A stretch of 64,000 nt of DNA from Candidatus Woesearchaeota archaeon (GCA_016929255.1 JAFGJH010000041.1:4313-68312); one strand, 5' to 3'. Positions 15,664 to 54,026 are shown, counted from the stretch's first letter. A program made the numbers and translations. The notes: generated from the letters alone by a model not told the origin.

Positions 15664-15955
15664 TTAAAGCGGTGGCTGCAGCCACGCTGCTACCCTGCTG
15701 TCGGTTGCCATGTGAATTCTGTTTTGCTGGTTGCTGCGCAAACCCTGAAGAACAGACAAAAGCGCAACCATTCTGATTCTTTGGTCTGAGGACACGCAAA
15801 GAGCGGTGGCTGCAGCCACGCTGCTATCGGTCATGTTGGTTGCTATCTTTCTATCCTTTAGCCTGTTGCTGCGCAAACCCTGAAGAACAGACAAAAGTGC
15901 AACCATTCTGATTCTTTGGTCTGAGGACACGCAAAGAGCGGTGGCTGCAGCCACG
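15664..15955. repeat. tandem 134-135 bp repeat array (2 units) bounded by three copies of a palindromic hairpin motif
   Basis: GCGGTGGCTGCAGCCACG occurs at 15669, 15803 and 15938. The segment 15731-15820 matches 15866-15955 at 89 of 90 positions. The array lies between convergent gene ends. Confidence 0.9.
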
Positions 15956-16001
15956 AATTAATATTCATGGCCACTGCCGCTTTTCTGAAAATAATAAACA
16001 A

Positions 16002-17243
16002 TCACTTCCCGACGATGTTGAGGCTGGAAAAAGCATTCTCCACATCAGCCTTCGAGTAACCAGAACTCAAGAGGGAATGCCTTATCTTGTCAATGTCATC
16101 GCCATGGTCCATCGCCAGCTCAATCATAGGCAGTATCTCATCTATCTTAGACGGAAGGCTGCTGCCTCCATCATCAGTGCCGGAATCCATTCCAGTTTCT
16201 CCAGAAGGGGCATCATCATCAGACACACCCATCCTGCCTGCGTAACCTGAACTCTCAGGTTCATCAAAAGACCTGAGATCGTCAGGGCTTATGCTGACCG
16301 TCTCAGACGGCTCGAACCGGGTCATCATCAGCTCCTTCATGCGCTCCCCGAACTCGCTCATCAAGGCGTTCTCCTTGCGCGCCTTCTCCTCAATCACCTT
16401 CTGCTGCTTATCAAGCTTCACCTTCATCGAAGCAAGAGCAGCATTGAAGAGCGAGACCTTCTTCGCATGGTTCTTCATTATTATGAGCCTCTTCTCCTCC
16501 TCTTCCTTCCTCAACTGCTCAAGAGCGTCGGCATACTCAGCCTCCCTGGAGCCTATTACGCGCCCCTTTTCCGCAAGAGCGGCGTCGTTAGACTTAAGGC
16601 GCTCCTTCATCCTCATCATCTCATAAAGAAGCTTCTGGTTCTGTTCATCAGTGGAGAAGACGCGTTTCTCGACAGCGCCGACCTTGTTGTTGAGGGCAAA
16701 GACCTGCTTCCTGTAAGCGTCGATCTGCTGCTCAAGGTCACTGTTCCTGCTGTCCATCCCCTTCAACAGCGATGTCTTCTCGGCTAGCTTGTCCTTCAGC
16801 ACCCGGACCATACCATCCTTCTCAGCCACTTGCTTCCTGAGCTCTGTGTTGAGCCTGTCCAAATCCTGCAGCTGCCTCCTGCTGTCTAGGATGTCCTTTG
16901 AAAGCGACTCTATCCTGGCAGACTGGTCATCAATCTTCTGCTTCATCGAGTTGACGACATCCTCGCGCCTGGAAAGGTCAAGCTCAACAGGCTTAATGTC
17001 ATCAATCATCTCAGAAATCAGCCGGCGCTTATCCTCAAGCTCTCCCTTGAGCCTCTTGAGCTCAGCGCGCACAGCAGGATCAGAACCTGAACCTCCCATC
17101 TCCTGCCTCAGGCTCTCGAACTCCTCCGCGAACCTGGAGATGACCTCCTGATTCTTCCTCAGACGGTCGGCCAGCTCCTCATTGGAACGCATGATCTCCT
17201 GGCTCTTCTTCCCAATATCCTCAAGGATGCTATTTTCCACCAT
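16002..17243 (-). CDS. cytoplasmic coiled-coil protein, function unknown
   Basis: 413-aa ORF, almost entirely heptad-like E/K/R/L-rich, with an acidic Ser/Asp linker and a small C-terminal helical domain (IDEILPMIELAMDHGDDIDKIRHSLLSSGYSKADVENAF). Confidence 0.7.
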   Translation of the reverse strand: MVENSILEDIGKKSQEIMRSNEELADRLRKNQEVISRFAEEFESLRQEMGGSGSDPAVRAELKRLKGELEDKRRLISEMIDDIKPVELDLSRREDVVNSMKQKIDDQSARIESLSKDILDSRRQLQDLDRLNTELRKQVAEKDGMVRVLKDKLAEKTSLLKGMDSRNSDLEQQIDAYRKQVFALNNKVGAVEKRVFSTDEQNQKLLYEMMRMKERLKSNDAALAEKGRVIGSREAEYADALEQLRKEEEEKRLIIMKNHAKKVSLFNAALASMKVKLDKQQKVIEEKARKENALMSEFGERMKELMMTRFEPSETVSISPDDLRSFDEPESSGYAGRMGVSDDDAPSGETGMDSGTDDGGSSLPSKIDEILPMIELAMDHGDDIDKIRHSLLSSGYSKADVENAFSSLNIVGK

Positions 17244-17314
17244 CTTTTTTTTTCAGCTCCCGCCATGGCAGGCAACCAACGACATGCGAATGACCATCGA
17301 AAGTGCACCAATAC

Positions 17315-18277
17315 TCATTTCTCAGAGCCGACCAACGCAACGTGCGCAAGGAAAGCCTCAAGCTGGACGAACTCGTCGCTGCCCTCAGTCATCCTGAACT
17401 CGGCCTCGCCGCATTTCTCGACCAGAGACATCTTCTTCCTGCCGTCGAGCTCAAGGTTGTATATCTCCTTCTGGACCTGCTTTATGACATCAAGGCCCGA
17501 AAGCCCGTAATTGAGCATGACATCGAGCAGCCTTTCCCGCGAATCGATGAACCCGCCCTTCAACGCAATCTCAAGGACATCCTTGACTTCCTTCGGCCTC
17601 GCGACCGACGCCAGAGAGTAGACTATATCATCTGTTATATTCTTGCTGATCGCGGCAGCGCTCTGGAGGATGTTCTCGACCCTCCTACAGTCCCCCTCTG
17701 ATATGTTGAACAGCGCCTCCTCAGCCTTGTCGTCCAGCCTCAGCCCCTCAATCTTGGCAATCTTCTTGACCAGCCTGAACACATCAACTTTCGGAAGCGG
17801 CTTGAAGCGGAATATCGCGCATCTCGACTGGATAGGATCTATTATCTTGCTGCTGTAATTGGCCGCCAGGATGAACCTTGTGGTCTGGGTGTAGTTCTCC
17901 ATGGTCCTTCTCAGGGCCTGCTGCGCCTCTCTCGTGAGAGCATCGCACTCGTCAAGATAGATTATCTTGAAAGGCACGTCCCCTATAGCCCGCGTCCTGG
18001 CAAAATCCTTGACCTTGTTCCTTATCACATCTATACCTCGCTCATCAGAAGCGTTAAGCTCAAGGAAGTTGCTGTGCCAAGACTCGCCGAAAAGCTGCCT
18101 TGCGACGACCAGCGCAAGAGAGGTCTTCCCGACTCCCGCGGGTCCTGAAAACAGAAGATGAGGCATGTTCTTCTCCTTCACAAAAGCCTCCACTCTCTTC
18201 ACAACAGCTTCCTGCCCAAGGACCTCGCTGAAGTCCTTAGGCCTGAATTTCTCTGTCCAGATGGCGTGCTCTGTCAT
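17315..18277 (-). CDS. rfcS: replication factor C small subunit
   Basis: WTEKFRPKDF, Walker A GPAGVGKTS, DECD, the SRC motif QSRCAIFRF. The conserved N-terminus starts at ATG 18277, inside ORF 17315-18346. Confidence 0.92.
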   Translation of the reverse strand: MTEHAIWTEKFRPKDFSEVLGQEAVVKRVEAFVKEKNMPHLLFSGPAGVGKTSLALVVARQLFGESWHSNFLELNASDERGIDVIRNKVKDFARTRAIGDVPFKIIYLDECDALTREAQQALRRTMENYTQTTRFILAANYSSKIIDPIQSRCAIFRFKPLPKVDVFRLVKKIAKIEGLRLDDKAEEALFNISEGDCRRVENILQSAAAISKNITDDIVYSLASVARPKEVKDVLEIALKGGFIDSRERLLDVMLNYGLSGLDVIKQVQKEIYNLELDGRKKMSLVEKCGEAEFRMTEGSDEFVQLEAFLAHVALVGSEK

Positions 18278-18387
18278 GCCTCTGAATAAAGTCCGAGAAA
18301 ATATAAATGTTTCCCTTTTAAAACCACGACAAAAAATCAAAAACAAAGAGAAAACAGCAAAAAATAAACAGAAAAATCAGAAGAGCA

Positions 18388-18651
18388 TCAGATGATGTCT
18401 TCCTCGGCAATGACCATGAAGTCACCGATAGCCATCAGCGCGCTGAAGGGTATAAGGATGTTATTTTCCTTGTCCTTCTCAAGCTCAAGCCTCTCGCTGT
18501 ACGGTGTAGGATTGATCAGGACCATGTGGATGAGTTCACCAGACTTGACCTCAAATATCATGTCACCGACTTCTCCGAACTTCTTGCCCGTCTTGGAGAC
18601 CACTGTCTTGCCAATCAGTTCCCTTGCAAATCGTTTTTCTTCCTCAGCCAT
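18388..18651 (-). CDS. PRC-barrel domain protein
   Basis: The ORF is trimmed to ATG 18651 (MAEEEKRFARELIGKTVVSKTGKKFGEVGDMIF...). The pattern is typical of small archaeal PRC-barrel proteins, and there is a paralog at 45226-45498. Confidence 0.6.
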   Translation of the reverse strand: MAEEEKRFARELIGKTVVSKTGKKFGEVGDMIFEVKSGELIHMVLINPTPYSERLELEKDKENNILIPFSALMAIGDFMVIAEEDII

Positions 18652-18856
18652 GTTAGCACCTCTCTTGGCATTCCTCAAGCATAACAATGAGTAATATAAC
18701 TTACTCTACAGTAAAAATAACATATTCATGGCATATATAAATCTTTTTGTTTTAAAACTCCCGTAATATCCTCCACATTCTTTAAAAACACACCTTACCA
18801 TGTCTTGCTGCCGGGTCCTGCCAGCAAAAAGCTTTAAATATGACGCTTCCAAAGGA

Positions 18857-19942
18857 ATGACCATCATGGATGTCGAAGAAAGACTCAACCTCATCCGCCA
18901 GGTCGGTGAGGAGATAATAGGCGAAGACGAGCTGCTGGAGATGCTCGCATCAGGCAGGAAGCTCATAGCCTATGACGGCTTCGAGCCATCAGGGAAGATA
19001 CACATAGCACAGGGCATACTCAGGGCAATAAATGTCAACAAGATGACCAAGGCAGGCGTGCATTTCAAGTTCTGGGTCGCAGACTGGTTCGCGCTGATGA
19101 ACAACAAGATGGGCGGGGACCTGGACAGGATAAAGACGGTCGGCAAGTACTTCATAGAGGTGTGGAAAGCCTCAGGCATGGACATGAAGGAAGTGGAGTT
19201 CCTCTGGGCAAGCGACGTCATGAACGACACCCAATACTGGCTCAAGGTCATCAACATCGGCCGCATCAACACCGTGACGCGCATAACAAGGTGCGCACAG
19301 ATAATGGGAAGGAGCGAGAAAGACACGCTGTCTGCAGCGCAGATATTCTACCCGTGCATGCAATGCGCAGACATATTCCATCTCGAGGCAGACATCACCC
19401 AGTTAGGCATGGACCAGCGCAAGGTCAACGTGCTCGCACGAGAGGTCGCGCCCAAACTCGGCTTCAAGAAGCCAGTAGTTGTCTCACACCACATGCTCAT
19501 GGGCCTCGGAGAGCCGCCAAAGACAGAGCTGACAGGAGCTGACGCGGCGATAGCAAAGAAGATGTCCAAGTCAAACCCTGACTCAGCCATATTCATGACA
19601 GACACGACAGATGAGATAAACAGGAAGATAAAGAAGGCATACTGCCCTGAGAAGATAACAGAGGACAATCCAATCATGGAATACTGCAGATACATCATAT
19701 TCGAGAGGTTCCCGATAATCGAGATAAAGAGGCCTGAGAAGTTCGGCGGAAACCTTGAGATACACGGCTACGACGAGCTGGTAAAGCTCTACACGTCAGG
19801 GAAACTGCACCCCCTTGACCTCAAGCAGGCGGTCGCGCACTACATCGACGAGATGCTGAATCCTGTGAGAGAACACTTCGCAAAGGACAAGAAGGCCAAA
19901 GAGCTATTCGAGAAGGTGCAGAGCTTCGAAGTGACAAGATAA
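18857..19942 (+). CDS. tyrS: tyrosyl-tRNA synthetase (archaeal/eukaryotic type)
   Basis: YDGFEPSGKIHIAQG (HIGH-like), KMSKS, and YPCMQCADIFHL... resembling M. jannaschii TyrRS. ATG at 18857 or 18866, inside ORF 18800-19942. Confidence 0.85.
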   Translation: MTIMDVEERLNLIRQVGEEIIGEDELLEMLASGRKLIAYDGFEPSGKIHIAQGILRAINVNKMTKAGVHFKFWVADWFALMNNKMGGDLDRIKTVGKYFIEVWKASGMDMKEVEFLWASDVMNDTQYWLKVINIGRINTVTRITRCAQIMGRSEKDTLSAAQIFYPCMQCADIFHLEADITQLGMDQRKVNVLAREVAPKLGFKKPVVVSHHMLMGLGEPPKTELTGADAAIAKKMSKSNPDSAIFMTDTTDEINRKIKKAYCPEKITEDNPIMEYCRYIIFERFPIIEIKRPEKFGGNLEIHGYDELVKLYTSGKLHPLDLKQAVAHYIDEMLNPVREHFAKDKKAKELFEKVQSFEVTR

Positions 19943-19956
19943 CAAGAGTCTATTCT

Positions 19957-21159: not shown

Positions 21160-21171
21160 GGTGAGGGAAAT

Positions 21172-22304: not shown

Positions 22305-22545
22305 ATCAGGGCAGCACAGCCAGGCTGCCAGTGGCGGCTGCTACGCTGCTATAGGCCATGTTGGTCGCTATCTTAGCAGCTTTCCTTCTGTTGCTGCGCA
22401 GACACCAAATAATAATAAAAAGTGCAAACCATTCCGATTCTTTGGTCTGATGACACGCAAAGAGCGGTAGTTCAGGCTTTGCATGAACATTGCAACCGTA
22501 GGTTGCTTTGGCAGCCACCATACAAGAAGAGGCGGCAGTGCTGCC
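22305..22545. repeat. single diverged copy of the 15664-15955 repeat unit plus extra hairpin motifs
   Basis: 22337-22468 aligns with unit 2 of the array (..ACGCTGCTAT.GG.CATGTTGGT.GCTATCTT.. and ..AAAAGTGCAA.CCATT.CGATTCTTTGGTCTGA.GACACGCAAAGAGCGGT). Inverted repeats GGCAGC..GCTGCC (22310-22329) and GGCAGTGCTGCC (22534-22545). It lies between convergent gene ends. Confidence 0.8.
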
Positions 22546-25190: not shown

Positions 25191-27049
25191 CTCTTAATTC
25201 CCTTGATTTTCTTAACTTTCCTGACTCTTTTGGCTCTCTCGACTTTCCTTACTTTTTTGACATTCCCTGTTTTCTTGACTCTCTTAACTTTCTTCATGCT
25301 CTTGACAGGCACTTCGTGCTCTGCGGGCTTTTCTGGCAACGTCTCCACTGTCCGCAGTTCCTCCGGGTGATATCTGCGATATCTGGATGCAAGCATGGCT
25401 ATTGACGCGAGCACGGCAAGCAAGACCAGGACAACCACCAAGACCTTCAGCCAGCCAGGCTGAGCAGGCCTTTCCGCAACCGGACCGAGCGCCTTCTCCA
25501 TTTCCTCTGCACTGGCATCGGTCTTCCTGCGCAGCTGCTCTTCCATGTCCGCAGCAGTCTCATCACCAACAATGACAGTCACCTTCCTGAAATGCGTGAT
25601 GTCCGGTTTCCGCGTAGGGACCGGCTCTGTGACATTCTCGGGCTCTATCGGAGACCTGACCCTGACAGCGAAGACAGAGAAGCCCGGCGACTCTGCCTCA
25701 TAGAAGAAACTCTCCCTATCCTCACCGGCCAGCTTCGTGTCCAGGTCAGACCAGACACCATCATGGTATCTTGTCACCACAATATCACCTGGAGACGCAT
25801 TCTTGAGATCCATCCATTCCTTGCTGACAGCAACCTCAATGACTGCACGGTCCACAGACAAATCATACAGGTTTGATGTGCTCACCTCAAAATACCAGTA
25901 TACATCGGGCAGATCCTTTCTTATGCTGACAGGCCTCTCTGAAAGAGGCGTAATGCGCACTTCCGCCCCATCAACAAAAGAGTTCAGCATGAGCCTAATT
26001 CCCTTGACGATGCTTTCTGCCATTGTCGGGCGCAGAACATATTCCTTGTGCGGCTCGAAGCTGCTTATAATGAAAGTCACCACGTTGTCGATAGTCCTGG
26101 CGAAGTAAGGCAGACCGCCCCCGCCCCCACCACCCGGAGGGCTGGGAGGGACGACCTTCACCAATCCAGGAAGCATCACGATGATCCTGGCCACTGACCC
26201 CTGACTCGGATTGTAGTCACTGTCAACACCAGCAATCTCGGTGACAGTGATCTTCTCCACAGTATTGTTGTAAGTGTAATCAGGAGGGATGACAAAATCA
26301 AGATAAATCTCTTTCATCTTCGTGCTGCTGCCGAGCTCAATGACATTCCTGAGCCAGCCATTGGTCGACCATCCCGTCGTGCTGGACTGGACATCATCAA
26401 AGAATCCTATCTCAGGAATAGATATGTCATCGACAAGCCATCCGTGCTCGGCATAATAATCATCACTGACATACCAGAACCTAAGCAGGATGACATCACC
26501 TGCGTAATGAGTGAGGTCCATGGTCTCAGGTGTCCAGTCAGAGACAGAGCCAGTGTAAGCAGGCGCGCCGGGCACACCGATGTATGCTCCAGGATCCCTG
26601 TAAGCGGTGGTGGTCGTGCCTGCCAGCTGAGACCAGGTGCTGCCATTGTCCGTCGAGACCTCCACGTACCCGAAATCCCAGCCGTACTCCACACTGTACT
26701 TGGTGTTGAATTTAAGCGTCGCAGAGGAGACACCGGTCAGGTTGAACTCCCGCTGAAGATAGACATCGCTCTTGTCCAACCTTGTCGAGTACCAGTAATT
26801 GTCAAGCCTGAACGCTGCGTAAGGCGCGAGCGTACCGTCGACAGCGAGCGCAACAGAAAGGTCCTCATTCGCCCCGTTGACCAGGAAATACTTGATGCTG
26901 GAAAGCTGACCAGGAGTGTACCTAACCTCCTTCTCAAAAGTGCCCAGGCCAATGGCCGCGACGCAGCTCGCGCCGGCAAAAAGGAGCAACAGCGCTAATG
27001 CGATGCCTCCGAACAGCCTATGGTCCATCTGCTTAATAGTATGTCTCAT
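25187..27049 (-). CDS. surface protein: signal peptide, InhA-like MAM/jelly-roll domain, PGF-pre-PGF-like domain, C-terminal TM anchor and Lys/Arg-rich tail
   Basis: ORF 25187-27064 (TTG); ATGs at 27049 and 27028. ATLKFNTKYSVEYGWDFGYVEVSTDNGSTWSQL...VILLRFWYVSDDYYAEHGWLVDDISI resembles the accessory domain of M6/InhA peptidases. aa ~320-468 resemble archaeal PGF-pre-PGF domains. TM segment WLKVLVVVLVLLAVLASIAMLA. The tail is KKVKRVKKTGNVKKVRKVERAKRVRKVKKIKGIKR. Confidence 0.8.
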   Translation of the reverse strand: MRHTIKQMDHRLFGGIALALLLLFAGASCVAAIGLGTFEKEVRYTPGQLSSIKYFLVNGANEDLSVALAVDGTLAPYAAFRLDNYWYSTRLDKSDVYLQREFNLTGVSSATLKFNTKYSVEYGWDFGYVEVSTDNGSTWSQLAGTTTTAYRDPGAYIGVPGAPAYTGSVSDWTPETMDLTHYAGDVILLRFWYVSDDYYAEHGWLVDDISIPEIGFFDDVQSSTTGWSTNGWLRNVIELGSSTKMKEIYLDFVIPPDYTYNNTVEKITVTEIAGVDSDYNPSQGSVARIIVMLPGLVKVVPPSPPGGGGGGGLPYFARTIDNVVTFIISSFEPHKEYVLRPTMAESIVKGIRLMLNSFVDGAEVRITPLSERPVSIRKDLPDVYWYFEVSTSNLYDLSVDRAVIEVAVSKEWMDLKNASPGDIVVTRYHDGVWSDLDTKLAGEDRESFFYEAESPGFSVFAVRVRSPIEPENVTEPVPTRKPDITHFRKVTVIVGDETAADMEEQLRRKTDASAEEMEKALGPVAERPAQPGWLKVLVVVLVLLAVLASIAMLASRYRRYHPEELRTVETLPEKPAEHEVPVKSMKKVKRVKKTGNVKKVRKVERAKRVRKVKKIKGIKR

Positions 27050-30000: not shown

Positions 30001-32714
30001 ATCGTCACTGTCAGGGTCTCGGTCACCGTGGAATTACCTTCATCAGCCCTCGTCACATTGACCCTATTGACGCCAGGATATACATAGAACATCCCCCTGC
30101 AGCTTTCATTGACATCCATGATGGACTTTGCGTAAGGGCAGATGTAGGCGAGGCCTTCACCTGTCGACGGGATGTAAAGGGTCTTGGACGCGCTGACGAG
30201 CTCGCTCTGCTCCCTGACATCAACAGCTGATTTCCTCTCTGATGAAGATGACTCGACATTGATGCCGCTCAGGTCAATGTCAGACTCCGCATTGCCGAAA
30301 TATACCTCAAAAGAAGAGACATGGTTGCCTGACGCATCTTTCAGAAGGACAGCTTCAGTGCCGAACTGCCGCACCTCTGTCAGGTCGACAGCCTCATCAC
30401 CCTCAATTACTGCGGATGCATTGGCTTGGAGGGTGCGAACCCGCTTAGGGATGATGAGCATCTTGTCATACGCTGTAGCATAATCATACATCACGACACC
30501 ATCAGACCCGACTACAAAAGCTCCGGCAGAGGAATCTAAGCCCGCAATGGTGAGGTTATACCAGGACCACTCCCCTTCCTTAAGGGTGAGCGTGCTCAGG
30601 ATCCTGCCGGTGTTCTCCTCCATAAGGCGGATGGGCGCTGAATGCTCTGACCATGCATAAACGGATACGGTATCATTGTCTGACAGGCCAGAGCCGAATG
30701 CAAGCCTTAGCCTGTCGCCGCTTATCGTCGTTAAGTTCCCATCCTTTCCGGTCAGCATGGCGGTGACATCCTCCCCTGAAGAGAAGTTCTCTCCCAACAG
30801 CACTGCTGAAGCGAGGTCCACCTGAGGGATATCATAACTCAGGTCAAGCTCGTACTCCCGGCTCGAGAGGTGAGGCACAAGCCACTCTACGCGGTCAACC
30901 AAATAATCATTGTTCGAGTCGATGAACGTCAGGTTATCCACAGCCTCAACAGACGAGTCATTGTGCCTCCACTTCAGCTTCACAAGCCACTCCGGGACCC
31001 AGGCGACATCTGTATATGCGGTGACATTTGAGTAACCTATATCGCCGTAAATCACGACACTCTTGAGGTACTGGCTGTGCTCTGTCTCAGACTTCCAGGG
31101 ACCTGGCGTCTGGTATGATATTTCATATACCCTTGGAGCCGTCATGTTCTCTGTCAGGTTCATCTCGATATAGCTGCCTGAAATTTCAGGCAATGAATAG
31201 AGCACATCCTCTGAGATCAGGTCTAATGTCTCATTCACCACCCCTGTCGCGTTCCGGACAAGCTCCTCGATGGTCTCCGCACTGAAGAAGCTCCACTGCT
31301 GAGAGTACATGATTTCGTGGTTTAGCTCGCAGACAACATTCCAGGTGTGGGTACCGGGATCAAGACCAGTCACCTGGAAGAAGTTCAAGCCTTCAAGAAC
31401 GAGAATGTCGGTCTGGTTGACATTGCCGTCCAGGTGAAGGAGGCACTGGTCAAACTCCCTGTCAGTCTCGTAAAGCAGGTTGAAATTCCTTCCTCCTGTC
31501 TCATTGTCAGAGGGACTCAGAAGCCTGACAGGATGAGAATCAAGGGTGGCAGAGCCACTGACGCCGAAAAGCGAAGACAGCCAGCCAAAGAACTGCTGCA
31601 TAAGCCCTTTGTCTGTCTTGGCAGGGAATGCCGAGTACACACTCATAGGTGTGGGGCTCTCTATCCTTTGGACAGTCACCCTGGAACCCTCGAGGGTGAG
31701 GAAAACCGCTCTGCCGAATGCAATCCTGTCTTCACAGACCTTTTCACGGGAGGGAACCGCCGCCGCAGCCATTGCCTGCCCTTCCTGCCCCCCGCTGACA
31801 AGAGGAGTCTTGTAGACCTCGATGTATGAGGCCTGGTACGGGACAAAAGCCCTGATGACAACCTCTCCTGTCCTGTTAATGAATATCCGCCTTGTCCAAT
31901 TGACAGGGTTTCCCACCCTTGCGGAGCCCTGGACAAGCTCGCTCTGCAGCTCAGTGAAATCGGAAAAGTTGACGCTTATGTTGGTCAAGTTGAGCTCCAC
32001 GCTCATGTTGGCTGTAAAGTTGGAGATGTTGGCGACCGCAGTGAAGCTCTGCACATCGCTGGACCAATCGCCGAAAGCGCCGGAACAGTGTATCTTCCAG
32101 AGATACTCGCCGGGCTGGAGGTCCAGTGCCTCGAAATGGTTGAACCCTATCGGCGGGGTGTGCTTCTCAGCGGCAAGCCAGAACTCCTCCTGCAGGTACC
32201 TGTACAGGAAATAGAGGCCGCAAGTGTCTATTGAGGCGTTGCCACCGAGCTCGTATGAAAGGTTCACGCGCTCAGGGACGACCGATGAATCTTCAGGAGA
32301 GAGAATGGTTATGGTCAGCTCCTGAGAGATTTCCTGCAGCACCTCCGTAGTCATGTTGGTAATGTTGGTCTCGTTGGTTATGTCCGTAATCTCTGTCATG
32401 TTGGTGATGTTCGAAGTCAGGTTCAACGTAAGGTTGAGTGTCTCGTTGACAGCAGCATTCGTGAGATTTGTTTCATTGGTAATGGCTGTGTCGGTAATGT
32501 TGGTCAAGTTTTCAGTCTCATTAATCACTGAAAAACCGGTCATGCCCGCATTGCCTAAGAAATGCAGGAGTGAGAAAACGACCATTATGCTGAACAGAAT
32601 GATCAATATGTCTTTGGATGCCGAGTAACCAGGGGAATCGCCGAGCACATCATCCGCAGAGTTTTCCCTATGACCAGCAATCCCTTCTGATACCGCTTCA
32701 CCAGAGTTTTTCAT
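27033..32714 (-). CDS. giant (1893 aa) N-glycosylation-rich surface protein with two parallel beta-helix (PbH1/NosD-like) modules and Ig/FN3-like domains
   Basis: N-terminal TM/signal anchor (ILIILFSIMVVFSLLHFL). There are 13 N-x-T sequons in 57 aa. Duplicated modules CSGTYYLNDSAGDGLIKF...NNSLFNSTYGVYL...DWGPIT and CSGIYYVDDAAGNGLVNF...NNSVFNSTYGAYL...DWGPIT. The 3' end overlaps or abuts the next gene. Confidence 0.85.
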   Translation of the reverse strand: MKNSGEAVSEGIAGHRENSADDVLGDSPGYSASKDILIILFSIMVVFSLLHFLGNAGMTGFSVINETENLTNITDTAITNETNLTNAAVNETLNLTLNLTSNITNMTEITDITNETNITNMTTEVLQEISQELTITILSPEDSSVVPERVNLSYELGGNASIDTCGLYFLYRYLQEEFWLAAEKHTPPIGFNHFEALDLQPGEYLWKIHCSGAFGDWSSDVQSFTAVANISNFTANMSVELNLTNISVNFSDFTELQSELVQGSARVGNPVNWTRRIFINRTGEVVIRAFVPYQASYIEVYKTPLVSGGQEGQAMAAAAVPSREKVCEDRIAFGRAVFLTLEGSRVTVQRIESPTPMSVYSAFPAKTDKGLMQQFFGWLSSLFGVSGSATLDSHPVRLLSPSDNETGGRNFNLLYETDREFDQCLLHLDGNVNQTDILVLEGLNFFQVTGLDPGTHTWNVVCELNHEIMYSQQWSFFSAETIEELVRNATGVVNETLDLISEDVLYSLPEISGSYIEMNLTENMTAPRVYEISYQTPGPWKSETEHSQYLKSVVIYGDIGYSNVTAYTDVAWVPEWLVKLKWRHNDSSVEAVDNLTFIDSNNDYLVDRVEWLVPHLSSREYELDLSYDIPQVDLASAVLLGENFSSGEDVTAMLTGKDGNLTTISGDRLRLAFGSGLSDNDTVSVYAWSEHSAPIRLMEENTGRILSTLTLKEGEWSWYNLTIAGLDSSAGAFVVGSDGVVMYDYATAYDKMLIIPKRVRTLQANASAVIEGDEAVDLTEVRQFGTEAVLLKDASGNHVSSFEVYFGNAESDIDLSGINVESSSSERKSAVDVREQSELVSASKTLYIPSTGEGLAYICPYAKSIMDVNESCRGMFYVYPGVNRVNVTRADEGNSTVTETLTVTMEEVDIAGVRMYRVEGITGTGGGEAISILNTHSYPSLGANWTVLFTTKGTANLTITPVMNTTFSEFLRDDNSTEDDLLFIEIRCGSEYTHYRMKLIGDDGASYTYSDLAGNDSIVISSLFIEDYSCDGTGFLTNTELSGGHHHLLFIFGDQHAMAENYVSQLYCEITPDCSYTEVFRLSSIFNAHAELNTQSNYPYIACCREVYGEKVGTDCAAPDAEPILRLESETNSHVEKVSEAAYPHDICLSGTENYNITCAYNTDCSAYDTCVASISSADTGLNTNLMVGNCTGAGSYATKICCDTEVESACVTPYDDYTVTQDVTFCSGTYYLNDSAGDGLIKFGAGSVTATCNDTTIIGNISGFGFYSNGKDNITVEGCVVKNYTRGIFLNSTSDSTFLNNSLFNSTYGVYLLNSTGNVLHHNNFTGSGVYHACSDRSENHFNTTVGDAAQGNFWDDVSGLKIYDTNLDGYGDFGSEYPYNSTFSGKVSVNVTDWGPITIKNCADEDGDGYGAEGSDITSCTYNLYHDCDDTNASIFPPRDDLNLTSDTWLCSGIYYVDDAAGNGLVNFKANDITLTCDRTLLVGNDTGRAFSAGSLTNITLKSCNASNYTYGIYLDGTAGSTVRNNSVFNSTYGAYLTGGSSGNVIYYNSFRNSSDYHAFADTAGNQFNTTSGSVAHGNYWGGVELLKIYDTQDNGFGDAGLQYPYNAVNGGDVSANVIDWGPITSRTDYRIQPPTLLQPPAEDIITDSRNPVYGWLNPEHTLSDSVTYEIQVDDNSDFGSPEVAEMDIPEGSTFTYYWDLSWLQFSTTYYWRVRADDTYNLSEWSVVYNFSILPTTSCTQPSDEMDFGNMCVNPNQTICDQKGWGSHINDTLDNHPPPYSFENDGNLKAKGRVYSTNLWESSSILSMPHKYYQYMMGVNESGAYDWALDSSWIYMTKTSPSALEAFYGFKWQNDSDAANLHVLLESPTDETPGIKYSTTYIECEQNETYY

Positions 32715-35859: not shown

Positions 35860-36055
35860 TGCCGCGAGCAGTGCTGCAGCACAGCGACGCTTGTTTTACC
35901 TGCGCCGCCACCAGAGCGCCCGCTCTGCATGATCTGCTGAGTGTATTTCCGAGAGTTTGGTCTGTCGCATATTGTTCCACCAGCTCGCAAGGCGCTGGTG
36001 GCGGCGTTAGTTTAATCTCTCGCAGGCTGGCGTTGCCTGCCTTGCCTGTGGCGAT
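35860..36055. repeat. GC-rich hairpin-bounded intergenic element (subfamily shared with 46350-46467 and 53919-54026)
   Basis: GCAGTGCTGCAGCACAGCGACGCT (35868-) matches 46355- at 23 of 24 positions. CCAGCTCGCAAGG is shared with 53999-. There is an extra inverted repeat GCAGGC..GCCTGC at 36022-36040. Confidence 0.75.
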
Positions 36056-40333: not shown

Positions 40334-40482
40334 GCAAAAAGTGTCGCCTGCGGTGGGTGCCGCCAGTTCGCTCTTAATGATATTTGGTGAAACCCTGCCT
40401 CCCCCTGCAAGGGACATCCCCCTTGCCTGTGCGCATCATCACCTAAATGAGCCCGCAGATTGGCGGCACCACCGCTTTTTGC
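40334..40482. repeat. 149-bp element with long terminal inverted repeats (rod-like hairpin)
   Basis: All 22 nt of the right arm TGGCGGCACCACCGCTTTTTGC (40461-40482) pair with the left arm 40334-40365 if bulges of 9 nt and 1 nt are allowed. Inner stem ATTTGGTGA / TCACCTAAAT. TATATAAA (40306-40313) lies ~26 nt upstream of the element start. Confidence 0.8.
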
Positions 40483-40551
40483 CAAGCCTGTTTGTGCAAT
40501 AGACAAAAATTTAAATATGCAGTAAGCAACATGAGTGTAAAGAGGTGCAAC

Positions 40552-41026: not shown

Positions 41027-41262
41027 GCGCCCCGCACCAGGTTTAGAGAGGCAGCTGCCACGTTGCTAGTGATGCTTTGCCGGCAAGCAGAAGACTTGCG
41101 CACCACTAGAGGCTACGCCTTTCGCATACTGCTGGACAAGTACCTGTCTCCGCCCAGTCATCCAACCGACGTGTCAGAAACCCAAATGTTTCTGAGCATG
41201 CTCAGAAATGCTGAGCATTTCTGACACAAAGAGCGGCGGCAGCCGCCACGCACGCGCGGCGG
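41027..41262. repeat. GC-rich mosaic element sharing a ~120-bp module with 48543-48663, plus a cluster of alternating TCAGAAA/TTTCTGA inverted repeats
   Basis: Shared strings with element G: GCCACG.TGCTA, TTTGCCGGCAAG, AGAGGCT, GCATAC, ATCCAACCG. Perfect 20-bp palindrome TTTCTGAGCATGCTCAGAAA (41189-41208). Terminal motif AAAGAGCGGCGGCAGCCGCCACGC (41228-41251). Confidence 0.8.
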
Positions 41263-46349: not shown

Positions 46350-46467
46350 TAGCGGCACTGCTGCAGCACAGCGACGCTCGCAGCACTTATTGTAACTATG
46401 ATTCTTCCGCGAGTTGGCCAACAAATTATTGGCCGCCTGGCTCGCAGGTCGTCAGTGCTGCAGCAGC
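46350..46467. repeat. GC-rich hairpin-bounded intergenic element (subfamily with 35860 and 53919)
   Basis: Terminal near-palindromes GCACTGCTGCAGCAC (46355-46369) and CAGTGCTGCAGCAGC (46453-46467). Internal TTCCGCGAGTTGG...CTGGCTCGCAGG. Confidence 0.75.
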
Positions 46468-46521
46468 TTTATGCAAATTCTGAGAAATGTTTATAAACGC
46501 AAAATGCTTCAGTCTTCTATA

Positions 46522-48355: not shown

Positions 48356-48678
48356 GGCGCACAAGCGGTGGCACCGTGAATGCGCGAGGCTTAGCAAGTG
48401 AACGGTCGCGGCCGTTGTGGGGGACGCCTCCGAGCGGAAGCGATCGAGGCACCAAAGCGCCTGCCGCTTTGAGCACCCCCTACGGGGAAACAGGCCCTGC
48501 AGAGGATCAATCACTGGCCGAGTTTCACGTGCCACTGCATCAGCAGTGCCACGCTGCTAACGCGTTTTGCCGGCAAGAACCTGCTGGTTTCAGCACAAGA
48601 GGCTGGCGCCTTCCGCATACCGCCGGTGCTTAAGCCGGTTTCTAACAATCTATCCAACCGGCGCACAAGCGGTGGCAC
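48356..48678. repeat. 323-bp GC-rich structured element flanked by perfect 19-bp direct repeats
   Basis: GGCGCACAAGCGGTGGCAC occurs at 48356-48374 and 48660-48678. There is an internal hairpin CACTGC-ATCA-GCAGTG followed by CCACGCTGCTA (the same head as the 15664 array). It contains many local stems and lies between convergent gene ends. Confidence 0.85.
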
Positions 48679-48701
48679 TGCCGAAGATACCGCTCTGCTG
48701 A

Positions 48702-48971: not shown

Positions 48972-48991
48972 GACAACAGACAGAAAGGAAT

Positions 48992-48999: not shown

Positions 49000-49023
49000 A
49001 AGTTCACGTATTTTCAGCATTCC

Positions 49024-49608: not shown

Positions 49609-49732
49609 GGCCCGTCCTGACTCGCTTTTACACCGCCACAAACCGCGCTCGCATCGCTTCTTATAACCATTATTCTTGCCCATTTCAAACCTTTGGTTTG
49701 TAATGTCCCAAGCAGGGCTTGTGCCAACTGCG

Positions 49733-49741
49733 ATTTTTTTT
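49733..49741 (+). terminator. oligo-T tract, candidate archaeal terminator
   Basis: A run of nine T (49733-49741) lies ~125 nt downstream of the MBL hydrolase stop. Confidence 0.35.
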
Positions 49742-49858
49742 GCGTATTCTTCCACTACTCGTTAGGCGGTTGTGGCTGTGTTAACTCTACTTGGGACAGG
49801 GCAACCACCAAGCAAAGCTTTATAAACAGATGATTTCTCAAGCAGGTATTCACTTTTA

Positions 49859-49987
49859 ATGGTGGACAACTTGAAAAAAAGAGAGTACATAACAAAACTG
49901 ATGCTGTTTGCCATCTTCGGACTGGTATTCGGCAATTTCGTGACAAACGCCATACTCATTCTGAACACACTGAACTATAATGTTTAA
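49859..49987 (+). CDS. possible 42-aa hydrophobic micro-protein (below ORF-track cutoff)
   Basis: My own translation: MVDNLKKREYITKLMLFAIFGLVFGNFVTNAILILNTLNYNV. TTTATAAA at 49819-49826 places a transcription start ~10 nt upstream of the ATG. Confidence 0.3.
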   Translation: MVDNLKKREYITKLMLFAIFGLVFGNFVTNAILILNTLNYNV

Positions 49988-50009
49988 GCTCTCTTGCAGA
50001 GCACTTGTT

Positions 50010-50094
50010 CACTCCCCACTGGACATGCTTTCCCCGTAGGCGCTGGCCCGGTGTGTCGTTCGGCGCTTTGCTCCTCACTTCCCACTGGACACGC
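50010..50094. repeat. 19-bp direct repeat pair flanking a GC-rich segment related (inverted) to part of element 48356-48678
   Basis: CACTCCCCACTGGACATGC (50010-50028) and CACTTCCCACTGGACACGC (50076-50094) match at 17 of 19 positions. The reverse complement of the spacer contains CAAAGCGCC and CCTACGGGGAAA, also present at 48454-48490. Confidence 0.65.
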
Positions 50095-50172
50095 CCGGAT
50101 GAGCTATTTAAAGGCAGAACTGCTTATTCTTAGCATTGGCAATAAAAATTAATAATAAAGAGAGGATACGTA

Positions 50173-52488
50173 ATGATAGAATCAACAACAAGGACACTCA
50201 GTGACTGGAGCAATGCAGAAACAAGGCAAAAACCGCGTTCCGAGGTGCCAAGATACAAGATGATGCTCAAGAACATCACGCCAAGGCTGTACCAGGAGAC
50301 AATACTGGGCATGTGCGTAGACAAGAACTGCCTGGTCGTCCTGCCGACAGGCATGGGAAAGACAGTCATAGCGCTCATGCTCGCCTCACAGAGGCTGAAG
50401 TGCTTCCCGAACAGCAAAGTGCTCTTCCTCGCCCCGACAAGGCCTCTTGTAGAGCAGCACCTCCAGACATTCTCAAACCACTTCGACCTTGAGGAAAGCG
50501 AGCTCGCAGTCTTCACAGGATTCGTCAAGCCAGAGAAGAGGGCGCTGCTGTGGAAACAGGCCAAGGTCATCTTCAGCACTCCGCAAGGCCTCGAGAACGA
50601 CATCATAACCAACAAGATAGACCTCTCAGAGGTCAGCCTGATAATATTCGACGAGGCGCACCGCGCCACAGGAGACTACGCATACACATTCGTAGCGAAA
50701 CAGTACAACAAGAAAGCACGCTACCCGAGGATACTGGCGCTGACCGCCTCCCCTGGAAGCGAGGTCGAGAAGATAAACGACGTCTGCAAGAACCTGTACA
50801 TCGAAGGCGTGGAGCTGAGGACAGACGAAGACCCTGACGTAAGACCATACATACAGGAGACAAAAGTCGAATGGGTGCAGGTAGAGCTGCCAAAAGAGTT
50901 CGACAAGATAAAGCAATACCTGAAGGCCTGCTACAACAGCAAGCTGGACGAGATCAAGAGGCACGGCTATGCAGACACATCAAGGATGCTCACCAAGGTG
51001 GACCTCCTGAAGCTGCAGGGGCACCTGCACTCAGAGATAGCCAAGGGCGACAAGTCATTCGAGATAATGAGATCAGTCTCGCTCATAGCAGAGGCCATGA
51101 AGACAGAGCACGCGATAGAGCTGATAGAGACGCAGGGCGTCGCTCCGCTCCACCACTATTTCGAGAGGATATACGAAGAGTCGCGGTCATCGAAGGTGAA
51201 GGCTGTGCAGAACCTCGCCAGCGACCTCAACTTCAAATCAGCGGCCATACTGGCAAGGAACCTGATGCAGGAGGGCGTCGAGCACCCCAAGCTTGCGACA
51301 CTCAAGTCACTCGTCGAGAAAGAGGCAGAGGCCAACAGCAAGGTCAAGATAATCATATTCAACCAGTACAGGGAGAGCGCAAAGAAGATAGAGGAGACTC
51401 TCAACACCATACCAGGAGCAGAGTCGAGGGTGTTCGTAGGCCAGGCAAAGAAGAACGGCACAGGACTCTCGCAGAAGGAGCAGAAGCAGATGCTCGAGGA
51501 CTTCAAGAACGGGAAGTTCAACTGCCTTGTCGCGACATCAGTCGCAGAGGAAGGGATAGACATACCCTGCGTGGACCTTGTCATATTCTACGAGCCCATA
51601 CCGTCAGGCATAAGGACAATCCAGCGGAGGGGAAGGACCGGAAGGCAGGACAGCGGAAGGGTAACGGTGCTGATGACGCGCGGGACGAGGGATGAAGGGT
51701 ACAAATGGAGCGCACACCACAAGGAGAAACGCATGTACCGCGAGCTGGACAGCCTCAAGACAAAGTTCAAAGGCCTTGACCGCAGGGCAGAAGAGAAGCT
51801 CGAGAAGTACATAGCTCCGGAGATCGAGCTCAAAGTGTTCGCAGACTTCAGGGAGAAGGCATCCGGCGTCATAAAAGAACTCATAGACATAGGAATATCC
51901 GTCAACATGCAGACGCTGAATGTCGGGGACTACCTGCTTTCCCAGAGGGTTGGCGTAGAGTACAAGAAAGTCCCTGACTTCGTGGACTCAATCATCGACG
52001 GAAGGCTGCTCGACCAGATAAAGAGCCTCAAGCAGAACTTCGAAAGGCCCATGATAATCATCGAGGGGCAGGAAGACATCTACGCGATGAGGAAGATAGC
52101 TGCAAACGCCATACGCGGCATGCTCGCGACCATAATGGTCAGCTACGGAATACCTGTCATACAGACAAAGACGGTGAAAGAGACAGCATCGCTCATGGCA
52201 GTCATAGCCAAAAGGGAGCAGGACCCTGATTTCAGGGAGTTCAACCCGCACGGAAGCAGGAAACCGATGACCACAAAAGAACTGCAGGAATACATAGTCT
52301 CAGCGCTGCCCGGAATAGGACCTACACTCGCAAAGCCATTGCTTGAGAGGTTCGGTACGGTAAGGGCTGTAGTGAACGCCTCGGAGGCGGAGCTGCAGGA
52401 GATAGAAAAGATAGGCGAGAAAAGGGCGAAAGAGATACAGAGGCTACTGACAGAGAGATACGAGAATGAAAACAACAACAGACATTAA
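50173..52488 (+). CDS. hef: Hef-type helicase-nuclease (SF2 helicase + ERCC4/XPF nuclease + tandem HhH)
   Basis: LYQETI...LPTGMGKT, IFDEAHRATG, helicase C motifs (VATSVAEEGIDIP, QRRGRTGR), ERCC4-like VFADFRE...LNVGDYLL...VEYK, and C-terminal LPGIGPTLAKPLLERFG. An alternative start is at 50260. Confidence 0.88.
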   Translation: MIESTTRTLSDWSNAETRQKPRSEVPRYKMMLKNITPRLYQETILGMCVDKNCLVVLPTGMGKTVIALMLASQRLKCFPNSKVLFLAPTRPLVEQHLQTFSNHFDLEESELAVFTGFVKPEKRALLWKQAKVIFSTPQGLENDIITNKIDLSEVSLIIFDEAHRATGDYAYTFVAKQYNKKARYPRILALTASPGSEVEKINDVCKNLYIEGVELRTDEDPDVRPYIQETKVEWVQVELPKEFDKIKQYLKACYNSKLDEIKRHGYADTSRMLTKVDLLKLQGHLHSEIAKGDKSFEIMRSVSLIAEAMKTEHAIELIETQGVAPLHHYFERIYEESRSSKVKAVQNLASDLNFKSAAILARNLMQEGVEHPKLATLKSLVEKEAEANSKVKIIIFNQYRESAKKIEETLNTIPGAESRVFVGQAKKNGTGLSQKEQKQMLEDFKNGKFNCLVATSVAEEGIDIPCVDLVIFYEPIPSGIRTIQRRGRTGRQDSGRVTVLMTRGTRDEGYKWSAHHKEKRMYRELDSLKTKFKGLDRRAEEKLEKYIAPEIELKVFADFREKASGVIKELIDIGISVNMQTLNVGDYLLSQRVGVEYKKVPDFVDSIIDGRLLDQIKSLKQNFERPMIIIEGQEDIYAMRKIAANAIRGMLATIMVSYGIPVIQTKTVKETASLMAVIAKREQDPDFREFNPHGSRKPMTTKELQEYIVSALPGIGPTLAKPLLERFGTVRAVVNASEAELQEIEKIGEKRAKEIQRLLTERYENENNNRH

Positions 52489-52490
52489 GA

Positions 52491-53351
52491 CTAAGCCCTC
52501 ATCTTCCTGAGCCGCTTGATCCTCTCATCCATGGGTGGGTGAGTGCTGAAAAGGGAAGTCAGACCCTTTGCAGAGAACGGGTTGGTTATGAACAGCGACG
52601 ATGTGGTCGGGTTCCCGAACCTCAACGGGTTGCTGCGCACGCCCCTCTCCAACTTCTCAAGCGCACTGGCCAATGCAAGCGGGTCATGTGTGGTCTTGGC
52701 ACCGGTCTCATCAGCAAGATATTCCCTTGAGCGGGAGATAGCAAGCTGGATTATGAGCGCGATTATCGGAGCGAGTATTGCAAGCACGAGCCAGCCTAGT
52801 ATTCCTCCGCTGTCACTGTCCCTGTTTCCGCCGAAACCGCCGAAGATGGCAGCCCAGCGTGCCATCATAGCGACGTAAGAGATGACACCAGCGATTGTTG
52901 CGGCAATGGTCTGTATGAGGATGTCACGGTTCTTGATGTGCGCCACCTCGTGAGCTATTACGCCCTTCAGCTCATCCTTGTCAAGCAGGCGCATGATCCC
53001 CTCTGTGCAGGCGACAACAGCATTCTTGGGATTCCGCCCTGTAGCAAAAGCGTTCGGGCTGTCGCTGGGGATGATGTAAACCTTAGGCACGGGAATGTTG
53101 GCGAGCTTCGCCACCTCCCGCACGGTCCTGAAAAGATCAGGGTGCTGGGACTCCTTGGCTTCCTTGGCCCGGTACATGAAAAGCACCAGCTTATGAGAGA
53201 AGAAATAGCTCAAGCCATTCATGAGGAGCACTATGATGAAAGCGATGGTAAGCCCCTGCATTCCGCCGACAAGCTGGCCGACCAGCAGCAGCACGACTGT
53301 CAAAGCAAGCAAAAGCACCAAGGTCTTGAACTGGTTTGCAGCAGCAGACAT
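52491..53351 (-). CDS. htpX: HtpX-like M48 membrane zinc protease
   Basis: 286-aa ORF with TM helices and AHEVAHIKNRD (HExxH). A GGAGG Shine-Dalgarno lies ~6 nt upstream. Confidence 0.88.
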   Translation of the reverse strand: MSAAANQFKTLVLLLALTVVLLLVGQLVGGMQGLTIAFIIVLLMNGLSYFFSHKLVLFMYRAKEAKESQHPDLFRTVREVAKLANIPVPKVYIIPSDSPNAFATGRNPKNAVVACTEGIMRLLDKDELKGVIAHEVAHIKNRDILIQTIAATIAGVISYVAMMARWAAIFGGFGGNRDSDSGGILGWLVLAILAPIIALIIQLAISRSREYLADETGAKTTHDPLALASALEKLERGVRSNPLRFGNPTTSSLFITNPFSAKGLTSLFSTHPPMDERIKRLRKMRA

Positions 53352-53393
53352 GATATCCTCCCCAAAATATGTTTCTTATGTTGTACCAGTTTC

Positions 53394-53439
53394 TTTATAA
53401 GCTTTATGAAACACTTTTTATAAGCTTTGTTAAACACTT
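53394..53439. repeat. tandem 23-bp direct repeat, each copy carrying a TATA-like TTTATAAG
   Basis: TTTATAAGCTTTATGAAACACTT (53394-53416) and TTTATAAGCTTTGTTAAACACTT (53417-53439) match at 21 of 23 positions. They lie 43-88 nt upstream of htpX ATG 53351. Confidence 0.8.
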
Positions 53440-53546
53440 ACACCCTTATCGATAAATAAAGAACGCCTGCGGCGAAATAAACGATACGCAAGGGTTGTCA
53501 GCGGCCTGGTTTGCGTCATTAGAGCCTGACATCGTGGTGTTGCTGT

Positions 53547-53906
53547 CTACAGGTGGCTGAAATATGTCGCAATGCCCTCGATATGGCTGAGGTCAGAGTT
53601 CCTGAAAAGAAATTCGCGGAAGAAACTGTCAACCTTGACGCCGTTCCGTGTGAGATTGGTCTTCAGGCTCGCGTATAACTTCTTGCCCTCCTTGTCAAGG
53701 TCAGTAAGGATGATGGTTTCCCTGACACCTTCCTTCGCAAGATCCTCAGCGACAGCAAAAGCAGCCTTATTCAGGCGGCGTATGCGGCTGCGAGGGAGAC
53801 CAAGCCTGACCAACGCATCGATGTCCTTGATGCCTTCTACTATGATGATCTTATCAGAATCCTTCAGCTTCTGAAGCCAGTCGAGCATTTCCTGTCGGTT
53901 GTCCAT
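53547..53906 (-). CDS. small stand-alone TOPRIM-domain protein
   Basis: KIIIVEGIKDIDAL (conserved Glu) and IILTDLDKEGKKL (DxD). ATG 53906 is preferred because the GTG 53933 extension runs into repeat I. Confidence 0.75.
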   Translation of the reverse strand: MDNRQEMLDWLQKLKDSDKIIIVEGIKDIDALVRLGLPRSRIRRLNKAAFAVAEDLAKEGVRETIILTDLDKEGKKLYASLKTNLTRNGVKVDSFFREFLFRNSDLSHIEGIATYFSHL

Positions 53907-53918
53907 TTTTTGAAACTT

Positions 53919-54026
53919 CCGCACCACTGCCACAGCGCTCGCTCCAATCCATCATCCTCTCCGCCATTCCGCGAGTTGGTCAAGCGCGTATATTTCCGCC
54001 AGCTCGCAAGGCGGTGGCAGCGGCGC
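53919..54026. repeat. GC-rich hairpin-bounded intergenic element (subfamily with 35860 and 46350)
   Basis: The left arm ..CCACTGCCAC.. is complementary to the right arm ..GTGGCAG... Internal 9-bp stem GCGAGTTGG (53971-53979) / CCAGCTCGC (53999-54007). TTCCGCGAGTTGG is shared with 46405-. Confidence 0.75.

Follow-up and report, generated by a model that had tools for sequence, protein, structure and literature searches.

Intergenic DNA in a 64,000-nucleotide stretch of a Candidatus Woesearchaeota genome (GCA_016929255.1 JAFGJH010000041.1:4313-68312, referred to below as the window) contains short GC-rich modules that are bounded by complementary arms and make up about a quarter of all its intergenic sequence. 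The reading that we favor, with a probability of roughly 0.6, is that these modules are non-autonomous mobile DNA of a Woesearchaeal (DPANN) lineage, of the same general kind as MITEs (miniature inverted-repeat transposable elements) and as repetitive extragenic palindromes (REPs) and the REPINs built from them. The case for mobile DNA is that the modules are dispensable, turn over rapidly, reoccupy the same sites and form mosaics, that some copies carry terminal inverted repeats and apparent target duplications, and that the modules are non-coding and have no promoter of their own. Genomes that still share 90-94% protein identity already differ by the gain, loss and exchange of modules.

The genomes of DPANN archaea are small and compact, with few descriptions of mobile elements, and DNA of the MITE or REP type is little described in archaea as a whole. 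Repeats such as these are not new to the lineage, because a census of MITEs published in 2024 placed a Woesearchaeal genome among the most MITE-dense of the archaea, with 105 per Mb (PMC11602168). We found no description in the literature of the division into families, of a closing module that covaries, of cores that behave like cassettes, of the turnover or of the bias in orientation. Should the modules prove mobile, they would represent a major source of genome change in Woesearchaeota that has hardly been studied, and they also offer a handle for strain typing.

Module families and their closing stem

A preliminary description of the window reported nine GC-rich intergenic loci (A to I) as copies of one hairpin-bounded repeat family, present in nearly every long gap between genes. 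Inspection of the sequence located all nine, with GC fractions of 0.60-0.73 in their richest 60 nt compared to 0.32-0.57 in intergenic gaps that have no locus. The palindromes quoted in that description were also found (GTGGCTGCAGCCAC three times, GGCGGCAGCCGCC and GTGCTGCAGCAC), and its gene contexts are correct: convergent genes flank A, B, E and G, divergent genes flank C, D and I, and tandem genes flank F and H. The estimate of frequency was too high for gaps of at least 80 nt, where a locus is present in 9 of 21, but it fits gaps of at least 250 nt (7 of 8). The idea of one family did not survive pairwise and profile searches, which instead resolved three sequence families with a common junction motif. 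Eight of the nine loci belong to them: T1 consists of B and the two units of A (A1 and A2), T2 of E and the second part of G (G2), T3 of C, F and I, and T4 of the first part of G (G1) and, inverted, of D. T1 and T2 merge in an iterated profile search because their ends are shared. Locus H had to be removed from the set, since it matches none of the family hidden Markov models (nhmmer) and its orthologous position upstream of hef is conserved.

Each module is a non-coding unit of 105-210 nt whose own two ends pair over 10-16 nt. The order of hairpin, unit and hairpin proposed earlier is a special case of this long-range stem joining both unit ends; local hairpins arise only where the arm itself is palindromic or where units abut. 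The arm of locus A (GTGGCTGCAGCCAC) is its own reverse complement, and so local hairpins are also found at the unit borders there. The arms of homologues are non-palindromic yet mutually complementary (GTGGCGGCTGCTAC…GTAGCAGCCGCCAC, CTGCAGCACCAC…GTGGTGCTGCAG and GCAGCTCCAC…GTGGAGCTGC). The hairpin cores around which the loci were originally grouped are not the conserved part of the module: variation is greatest in the arms, and what is conserved is the junction immediately internal to them. In T1-T3 the junction has the form arm-CGCU(C)GCU…CGCAA(A)G(A)GCGG-arm', with CGCUGCUA and CGCAAAGAGCGG in T1/T2 and the variants GCGCUCGC and GCUCGCAAGGCGG in T3, while the T4 alignment has an AAAGCGG-like motif ahead of the 5' arm. 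The head and tail ascribed to A, B, E and G are indeed shared by these loci, and they occur as a variant in C, F and I as well, a wider distribution than was claimed. The palindromes at the junctions, 10-14 nt long, are preceded by CAAAGAGCG instead of a GTAG tag, and GTAG is found only in some arms (GTAGCAGCCGCC). The families thus constitute one superfamily, in which the closing module is common and the cores can be interchanged.

The motifs are strongly enriched in the window, with counts 10-150 times the shuffle expectation. The head GCCACGCTGCTA occurs 5 times with at most one mismatch (0.33 expected), the tail-hairpin pattern 3 times (0.02 expected), and a looser tail signature at 8 sites (0.73 expected). 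The modules have no coding potential, and their indels are not multiples of three. They form mosaics, either in tandem (A) or side by side, as in G (T4+T2) and in the related loci L014 (T4+T1+T2) and L031 (T4+T1). Nesting is also seen: E contains a 57-nt palindromic hairpin (41171-41227, GTGTCAGAAA…TTTCTGACAC) that is lacking in its relative G2, and G1 contains an extra internal hairpin of about 50 nt that is lacking in the orthologous copy of L048.

A further near-perfect palindromic GC-rich module, which we call T5, has the arms GCAAAATCGCG…CGCGATTTTGC and occurs in L034 (4210-4411) and L040 (13722-13777), in both cases at the site of locus I. There are probably more families than the three of the window.

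The modules fold better than shuffled sequences, with z-scores of -2.4 to -5.6. Pairing in T1 was tested with 15 copies from at least four genomes, using a structure that consists of the closing stem, the junction and one internal helix. Standard pairs account for 93.0% of the cells, compared to 78.8% in shuffles (none of 500 shuffles reached the observed value), and 48 cells are changed on both sides, compared to 15.6 in shuffles. When the partner columns are slid, pairing falls to 22-57%. The internal helix, GGYUGC/GCARCC, switches between U-A and C-G, and the alignments of T3 and T4 contain 10 compensated pairs each. Covariation of the terminal arms alone could reflect co-evolution with a protein that binds the ends, but this cannot account for covariation in the internal helix.

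Turnover and orientation among relatives

Related DNA was scanned with profiles and covariance models, and the families were recovered with E-values down to 1e-48, both from locus to locus and from genome to genome. The scan (nhmmer and covariance models) yielded 22 T1/T2, 9 T3 and approximately 15 T4 copies in about 330 kb of DNA from related Woesearchaeota, all of them between genes. Syntenic loci of relatives were obtained via Hef, a 246-aa protein and an M29 peptidase, and the closest relatives (L034, L048 and L054) have 90-94% protein identity to the window. Pattern scans identified true homologues in two archaeal metagenome-assembled genomes (MAGs) of GTDB and in two metagenomes. The other hits in these scans were chance matches, namely 10 of 12 loci in GTDB, all in GC-rich bacteria, and 11 of 20 loci in the metagenomes.

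Orthologous sites show both presence/absence polymorphism and replacement, which supports the mobility implied when the loci were first likened to MITEs. Site A has two T1 units in the window and a T3 module in L054, and is empty in L055. Site B, filled in the window, is empty in L054 (36 nt) and L055; site E, likewise filled, is empty in L048 (12 nt), L039, L040, L036 and L042. Site G contains T4+T2 in the window and in L048, where the orthologous pair differs by internal indels, a T1 module in L040, an inverted T4 module in L043, and 0-16 nt in L039, L042 and L044. Site I contains T3 in the window and an orthologous T3 in L039, another palindromic module in L034 and L040, and none in L036 and L042. 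Three sites are filled only outside the window: L048 has T2 between the DUF212 and DAGK genes and T4 between TrmB and PRC, where the window has short, empty gaps, and L032 has a copy of the T1/T2 superfamily between RFC and PRC, where the window has 45 nt. In more distant relatives, no module is present at sites A, B, D and E. Repeated and independent hits thus fall on the same permissive sites, mostly between convergent genes.

Two contigs from independent short-read assemblies, L001 (Logan SRR13394437) and L054 (Ga0180009_10010100), end at locus A, stopping inside the repeat within about 170 nt of the gene that flanks it. This is as expected at a repeat, and repeats of this kind break assemblies of the lineage. 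In L036 (7883-9858), the block that runs from a lactamase gene through an 88-aa gene to the 246-aa gene is inverted relative to the window, and a module sits at each of the two breakpoints, T3 at 7883-7963 and T1 at 9711-9858. Modules may thus act as substrates for recombination.

All units have complementary ends whose sequence differs between copies, and five copies in relatives have in addition an outer inverted repeat of 14 bp (GTATTTGTTYAGCT…AGCTAAACAAATAC). In perfect or near-perfect form it encloses three copies completely (L024, 1306-1488; L043, 1974-2138; L048, 2884-3067), independent of whether the core is T2 or T4, and it is represented by its left end only in two others (L026, 1839; L036, 9690). 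The three complete copies are flanked by direct repeats of 8-9 bp, TTTTTTTTT/TTTTTTTTT, AAATAATA/AAATAATC and GAAATAGA/GAAATCCT, which match at 9/9, 7/8 and 5/8 nt; the pair in L048 is T9/T9. Together, the outer repeat and the flanking repeats look like the signature of a classical MITE shell with exchangeable cargo and a target duplication of 8-9 bp.

The orientation of the T1, T2 and T3 modules is highly biased. The five T1/T2 and three T3 copies of the window are all on the + strand, and at 14 independent sites T1, T2 and T3 are all + in the frame of the window, including sites flanked by minus-strand genes. These sites are A (counted twice, for independent insertions of T1 in the window and of T3 in L054), B, C, E, F, G2, G in L040, I, the copy upstream of hef in L036, the two T3 copies in L036 and L042, the DUF212/DAGK copy of L048 and the RFC/PRC copy of L032. 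The probability of such co-orientation by chance is approximately 2^-13. T4 is mixed in orientation, but this module is near-symmetric and its orientation calls are ambiguous. The bias is unexpected for MITEs of the DDE type. It is the result that replication-coupled transposition of a single strand would give, as in IS200/IS605 elements or with the REP-associated tyrosine transposases (RAYTs), and it could also reflect an oriented chromosomal function.

Competing explanations and a possible mechanism

A number of observations weigh against mobile DNA. No copy in the window has the outer repeat within 2 mismatches or a clear target duplication: a scan for the outer repeat with up to 3 mismatches stayed at background level with 37 matches (33.6 expected), none beside a window locus, and no target duplication was recognisable when sites E and B were compared with their empty counterparts. 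The outer repeat either decays quickly after insertion or marks a separate vehicle. The terminal arms are the least conserved part of the module, which is the opposite of ordinary transposase-bound inverted repeats, and a comparison of flanks revealed no conserved target sequence adjoining the module ends. The window copies, apart from the tandem A1/A2, are about 70-75% identical to each other and as diverged within the genome as between genomes; this gives no sign of a recent burst and is unusual for MITEs, in that the copies are old instead of near-identical. At most sites, loss by deletion cannot be told from gain by insertion. The non-Watson-Crick positions of the stems are of the transition type in 13 cases versus 1 other, and they are split into 6 G-U and 7 A-C, so that RNA and single-stranded DNA are equally possible as the folding form. 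Finally, neither an enzyme nor a parental element has come to light. No parent insertion sequence with the same ends was found in the window or in the roughly 330 kb of related loci. The earlier report of no transposase in the window agrees with Pfam tests of the window proteins, and none was seen elsewhere, either next to the 10 neighbours that were sampled or in the Pfam lists available for about 150 kb of syntenic sequence. The Y1/HUH transposase domain is absent from all Pfam results, though no dedicated search with RAYT or TnpA protein queries was made.

Some of these points are what one would expect if the modules were host-useful families of structured non-coding RNA, such as stability, termination or leader elements, trans-acting small RNAs or ribozyme-like RNAs, with the closing stem as a protecting or processing helix. 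The families would then be duplicated and lost in the way of other genes for small RNAs. The covariation in the closing stems and the internal helix, the better-than-shuffle folding, the greater conservation of core and junction than of ends, and the age of the paralogues within the genome all fit this explanation, as does the presence of differing structured modules side by side, which is known from some ribozyme classes. C and I lie between promoter and start codon and would thus be transcribed as leaders, in agreement with their earlier placement in predicted mRNA leaders. We nevertheless consider a host-useful RNA unlikely, although it is the main rival to mobile DNA. Modules B and E are absent, and A and I replaced, in relatives with 90-94% protein identity, so that the modules are dispensable, and unrelated modules occupy one site in different genomes. 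Orientation relative to the flanking genes is inconsistent, some copies run antisense to the genes on either side (for example L048 2907-3049), and the flanks contain no TATA-like box at a fixed distance upstream that could serve as a conserved promoter. The G-U pairs of the stems show no strand asymmetry, Rfam provides no match, and some copies have terminal inverted repeats and apparent target duplications.

Chromosomal DNA elements acting in cis and spread by recombination, whether terminators or insulators or else oriented replication or segregation sequences, are less probable still. They would be consistent with the location of most copies between convergent genes, with co-orientation at 14 sites regardless of transcription (as for polar chromosomal motifs), with the inversion in L036 that is bounded by two modules, and with shared arms and junctions that could allow cassette exchange by homologous recombination. 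However, relatives have 0-36 nt between the same convergent genes, so the elements are not needed there, and copies are also found where the genes are divergent or tandem. Polar motifs with a function are short and under strict conservation, unlike units of 100-200 nt with interchangeable cores. Termination in archaea occurs at oligo-T tracts and does not require hairpins. That the loci are a chance collection of GC-rich palindromes or unrelated hairpins, with no real family behind them, is very hard to maintain. Single short GC-rich palindromes do also occur within genes, and most short-pattern matches in GC-rich bacteria and viruses are due to chance, but the E-values (to 1e-48), the motif excess (10-150 times) and the covariation refute this explanation for 8 of the 9 loci, and it holds true only in that H is unrelated to the others.

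The preliminary description likened the loci to REPs arranged as bacterial interspersed mosaic elements (BIMEs) or to MITEs. This comparison stands with regard to a multi-copy, non-coding, strictly intergenic mosaic bounded by inverted repeats, but the defining features of REPs were not found. REPs, BIMEs and REPINs occur in clusters outside genes, fold into long hairpins that show compensatory changes, and are mobilised in trans (PMC3116915, PMC3733652); for REPINs in bacteria, both the compensatory changes and clusters with an order have been described (PMC3116915). In behaviour these are the nearest known elements, though we do not claim membership. Like REPs and REPINs, the modules are extragenic, mostly downstream of genes, and form dense clusters and mosaics of differing motifs; like REPINs, they have two inverted ends that make a long fold-back with compensatory changes, with local and long hairpins as alternatives. 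Most REP copies also have no adjoining transposase, and transposition of single-stranded DNA predicts strand-specific biology. In contrast, a REP conserves a palindrome of 20-40 nt with a GTAG or CGTC tag, whereas the modules vary their arms and conserve the junction and a core of about 100 nt, within units of 105-210 nt whose structured cores are interchangeable. No RAYT is present in the Pfam results, and the host is an archaeon, while the REPIN and RAYT literature that we found describes bacteria.

MITEs are the nearest formal class, including the modular BOX elements of pneumococci and the Correia elements of Neisseria. The modules resemble these in being small, non-coding, intergenic, modular and bounded by inverted repeats, in their insertion polymorphism between relatives, in their probable co-transcription into stable RNA stems, and, for a subset, in having a conserved 14-bp terminal inverted repeat with apparent target duplications of 8-9 bp. 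Their uniform orientation is unlike MITEs of the DDE type. It instead recalls the palindrome-associated transposable elements (PATEs) of the IS200/IS605 group, which also have structure-based ends, mostly no target duplication, and an orientation bias of the lagging-strand-template type. Unlike PATEs, the modules have no conserved target of 4-5 nt at the left end and no TnpA or TnpB gene nearby, and their ends pair together instead of forming two different subterminal hairpins.

Searches for known sequences were uniformly negative. Rfam gave no match at gathering scores, and the 7 weak matches obtained with E-values up to 10 are all outside the loci; no tRNA or tmRNA was predicted by ARAGORN, phage and plasmid records contained no blastn match, and a pattern scan of viral contigs found no T1 copy. 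The earlier statement that no archaeal equivalent has been described is thus correct for the sequence itself, which is unmatched in Rfam and in the phage and plasmid records, but not for the kind of element, because archaeal MITEs are known. Several candidates were rejected. Two T3-pattern matches in viral contigs are due to chance (contig GC 61-68%). A K-turn or a bulge-helix-bulge at the junction was rejected because the partner strand has no G·A pairs and only one of the strands is bulged. A hammerhead-like CUGAnGA is present in A and B and not conserved in homologues. In locus A a 32-nt junction recurs in the manner of a CRISPR array, but the intervals, each about 100 nt long, share homology among themselves (88-89%) and also with copies elsewhere, and there are no cas genes.

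If the modules are mobile DNA, as we favor, the mobilising enzyme would be encoded elsewhere in the genome and act in trans. An intermediate in the form of a folded single strand, and an enzyme that reads structure plus a short motif, are suggested by the conserved fold, by the conserved junction next to a stem that varies and by the uniform orientation. The moving form would most likely be single-stranded DNA at the replication fork, and the mechanism might be akin to HUH transposition of the IS200/IS605 or RAYT type, with the conserved junction and stem as a candidate site of recognition and cleavage. A subset of modules, or a fresh form of them, may use the outer 14-bp repeat (GTATTTGTTYAGCT) and duplicate 8-9 bp of target like a classical MITE. 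After insertion, the modules would be passengers in neighbouring transcripts, as 3' tails or 5' leaders, and may incidentally form stable RNA stems that the host does not need. Such long stems in mRNA leaders and tails may nonetheless affect expression.

A bolder and more doubtful possibility is that the modules are the archaeal counterpart of the REPIN-RAYT replicator, that is, folded-strand cassettes tied to the fork, recognised through CGCAAAGAGCGG-stem-GCUGCUA by an HUH-like or other enzyme and free to exchange cores. Insertion tied to the fork would explain the 14/14 co-orientation. Alternatively, the cores carried on such a vehicle would be new RNA folds, either self-processing or protein-binding. 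The modules may lead to a new archaeal transposition enzyme that acts on folded single strands, and their orientation, if it is linked to replication, could be used to infer replichores in uncultured archaea.

Coordinates, locus H and the genomic setting

Modules and related features of the nine loci, with positions counted from the first nucleotide of the window
Feature	Position	Strand	Description
A, unit A1	15668..15821	+	T1; arm GTGGCTGCAGCCAC, head GCTGCTA, core, tail CGCAAAGAGCG, arm GTGGCTGCAGCCAC; covariance-model score 145.8 bits; direct-repeat families D1, D4, D5; fold z-score -3.7
A, unit A2	15802..15956	+	T1, in tandem with A1 (identity 88-89%, junction hairpin common to both); fold z-scores -4.3 and -5.6 on the two strands
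A, right flank	15957..15990	-	Solo tail-plus-arm signature AAAAGCGGCAGTGGCC (looser tail-signature scan); probably a remnant of another module
B, module	22327..22482	+	T1; covariance-model score 121.8 bits, nhmmer matches; 3' arm broken after GTAG
B, whole locus	22305..22545	+	Read from sequence; T1 module plus a further GC-rich stretch (22472-22545), enclosed by complementary outer arms GGCAGCAC (22310-22317) and GTGCTGCC (22538-22545)
C, left piece	35860..35899	+	Solo left end of an F-type T3 unit (AGTGCTGCAGCACAGCGACGCT); 24 nt, 96% identical to F
C, module	35900..36008	+	T3; arms CGCCGCCACCAG / CTGGTGGCGGCG, head AGCGCCCGC, tail GCTCGCAAGGCG
D	40340..40486	-	T4, inverted; nhmmer cross-matches between D and T4, alignment; arms GGTGCCGCCA / TGGCGGCACC, preceded on the minus strand by CAAAAAGCGG
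E	41044..41251	+	T2; covariance-model score 33.3 bits
F	46353..46469	+	T3; arms CTGCTGCAGCAC / GTGCTGCAGCAG
G, part 1	48356..48556	+	T4; nhmmer, alignment
G, part 2	48535..48687	+	T2, abutting G1; covariance-model score 34.6 bits
H	50010..50094	+	Outside the repeat families; direct-repeat block 5' of the hef TATA box
I	53914..54033	+	T3; between the Toprim gene start codon and the shared promoter region

Locus H consists of two direct copies of CACTyCCCACTGGACAyGC on either side of a spacer that is GC-rich, and lies immediately upstream of the TATA box of hef (ATTTAAAGG). Five genomes have the block conserved in this place, represented by L034 (335-425), L035, L039 (9773-9839), L040 (9847-9926) and, in part, L036. 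H is most likely a cis-regulatory block, and it looks like a putative transcription-factor binding region for the hef promoter.

The window has a GC content of about 51% and the gene content of archaeal housekeeping, with Pfam domains that identify a fused PriS-PriL primase, Hef, PCNA, RFC, CDP-archaeol synthase and a ribosomal protein operon. The nearest homologues of Hef, the M29 peptidase and the 246-aa protein carry Nanoarchaeota or Woesearchaeota annotation, which places the genome among the DPANN archaea. The primase is a 558-aa protein (54113-55789) in which the small and large subunits are fused (Pfam DNA_primase_S and DNA_primase_lrg), an arrangement familiar from DPANN archaea, Nanoarchaeota among them, and consistent with this assignment. 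Its gene is preceded by a promoter block of strong conservation (54030-54110), found at the same place in L034, L039, L040 and L043. The block contains three TTTTAAA boxes (TTTTAAAGCAG … TTTTAAACACC … GTTTTAAATAkGTTTCTCAATTAT) and is probably shared by the primase gene and the Toprim gene that diverges from it.

Short periodic repeats of 9 nt occur within two genes of the window, at the 3' end of a minus-strand gene for a 625-aa protein (25193-25304) and near the 5' end of a gene for a 1893-aa NosD/beta-helix protein (32345-32530). Both runs encode three-residue peptide repeats, in large proteins that are secreted or at the surface. In one relative (L044 15580-20784), the MCM gene encodes 1734 aa, and the Pfam annotation lists intein-splicing and LAGLIDADG domains twice each, a doubling that points to two inteins. 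Lastly, the MAG GCA_964406185.1 (L013 and L040; CAYOQS010000003 and CAYOQS010000001) is labelled 'uncultured Methanosarcinales archaeon', but its Hef, synteny and repeat modules are as in the Woesearchaeal relatives of the window; probably the label is wrong or the bin is mixed.

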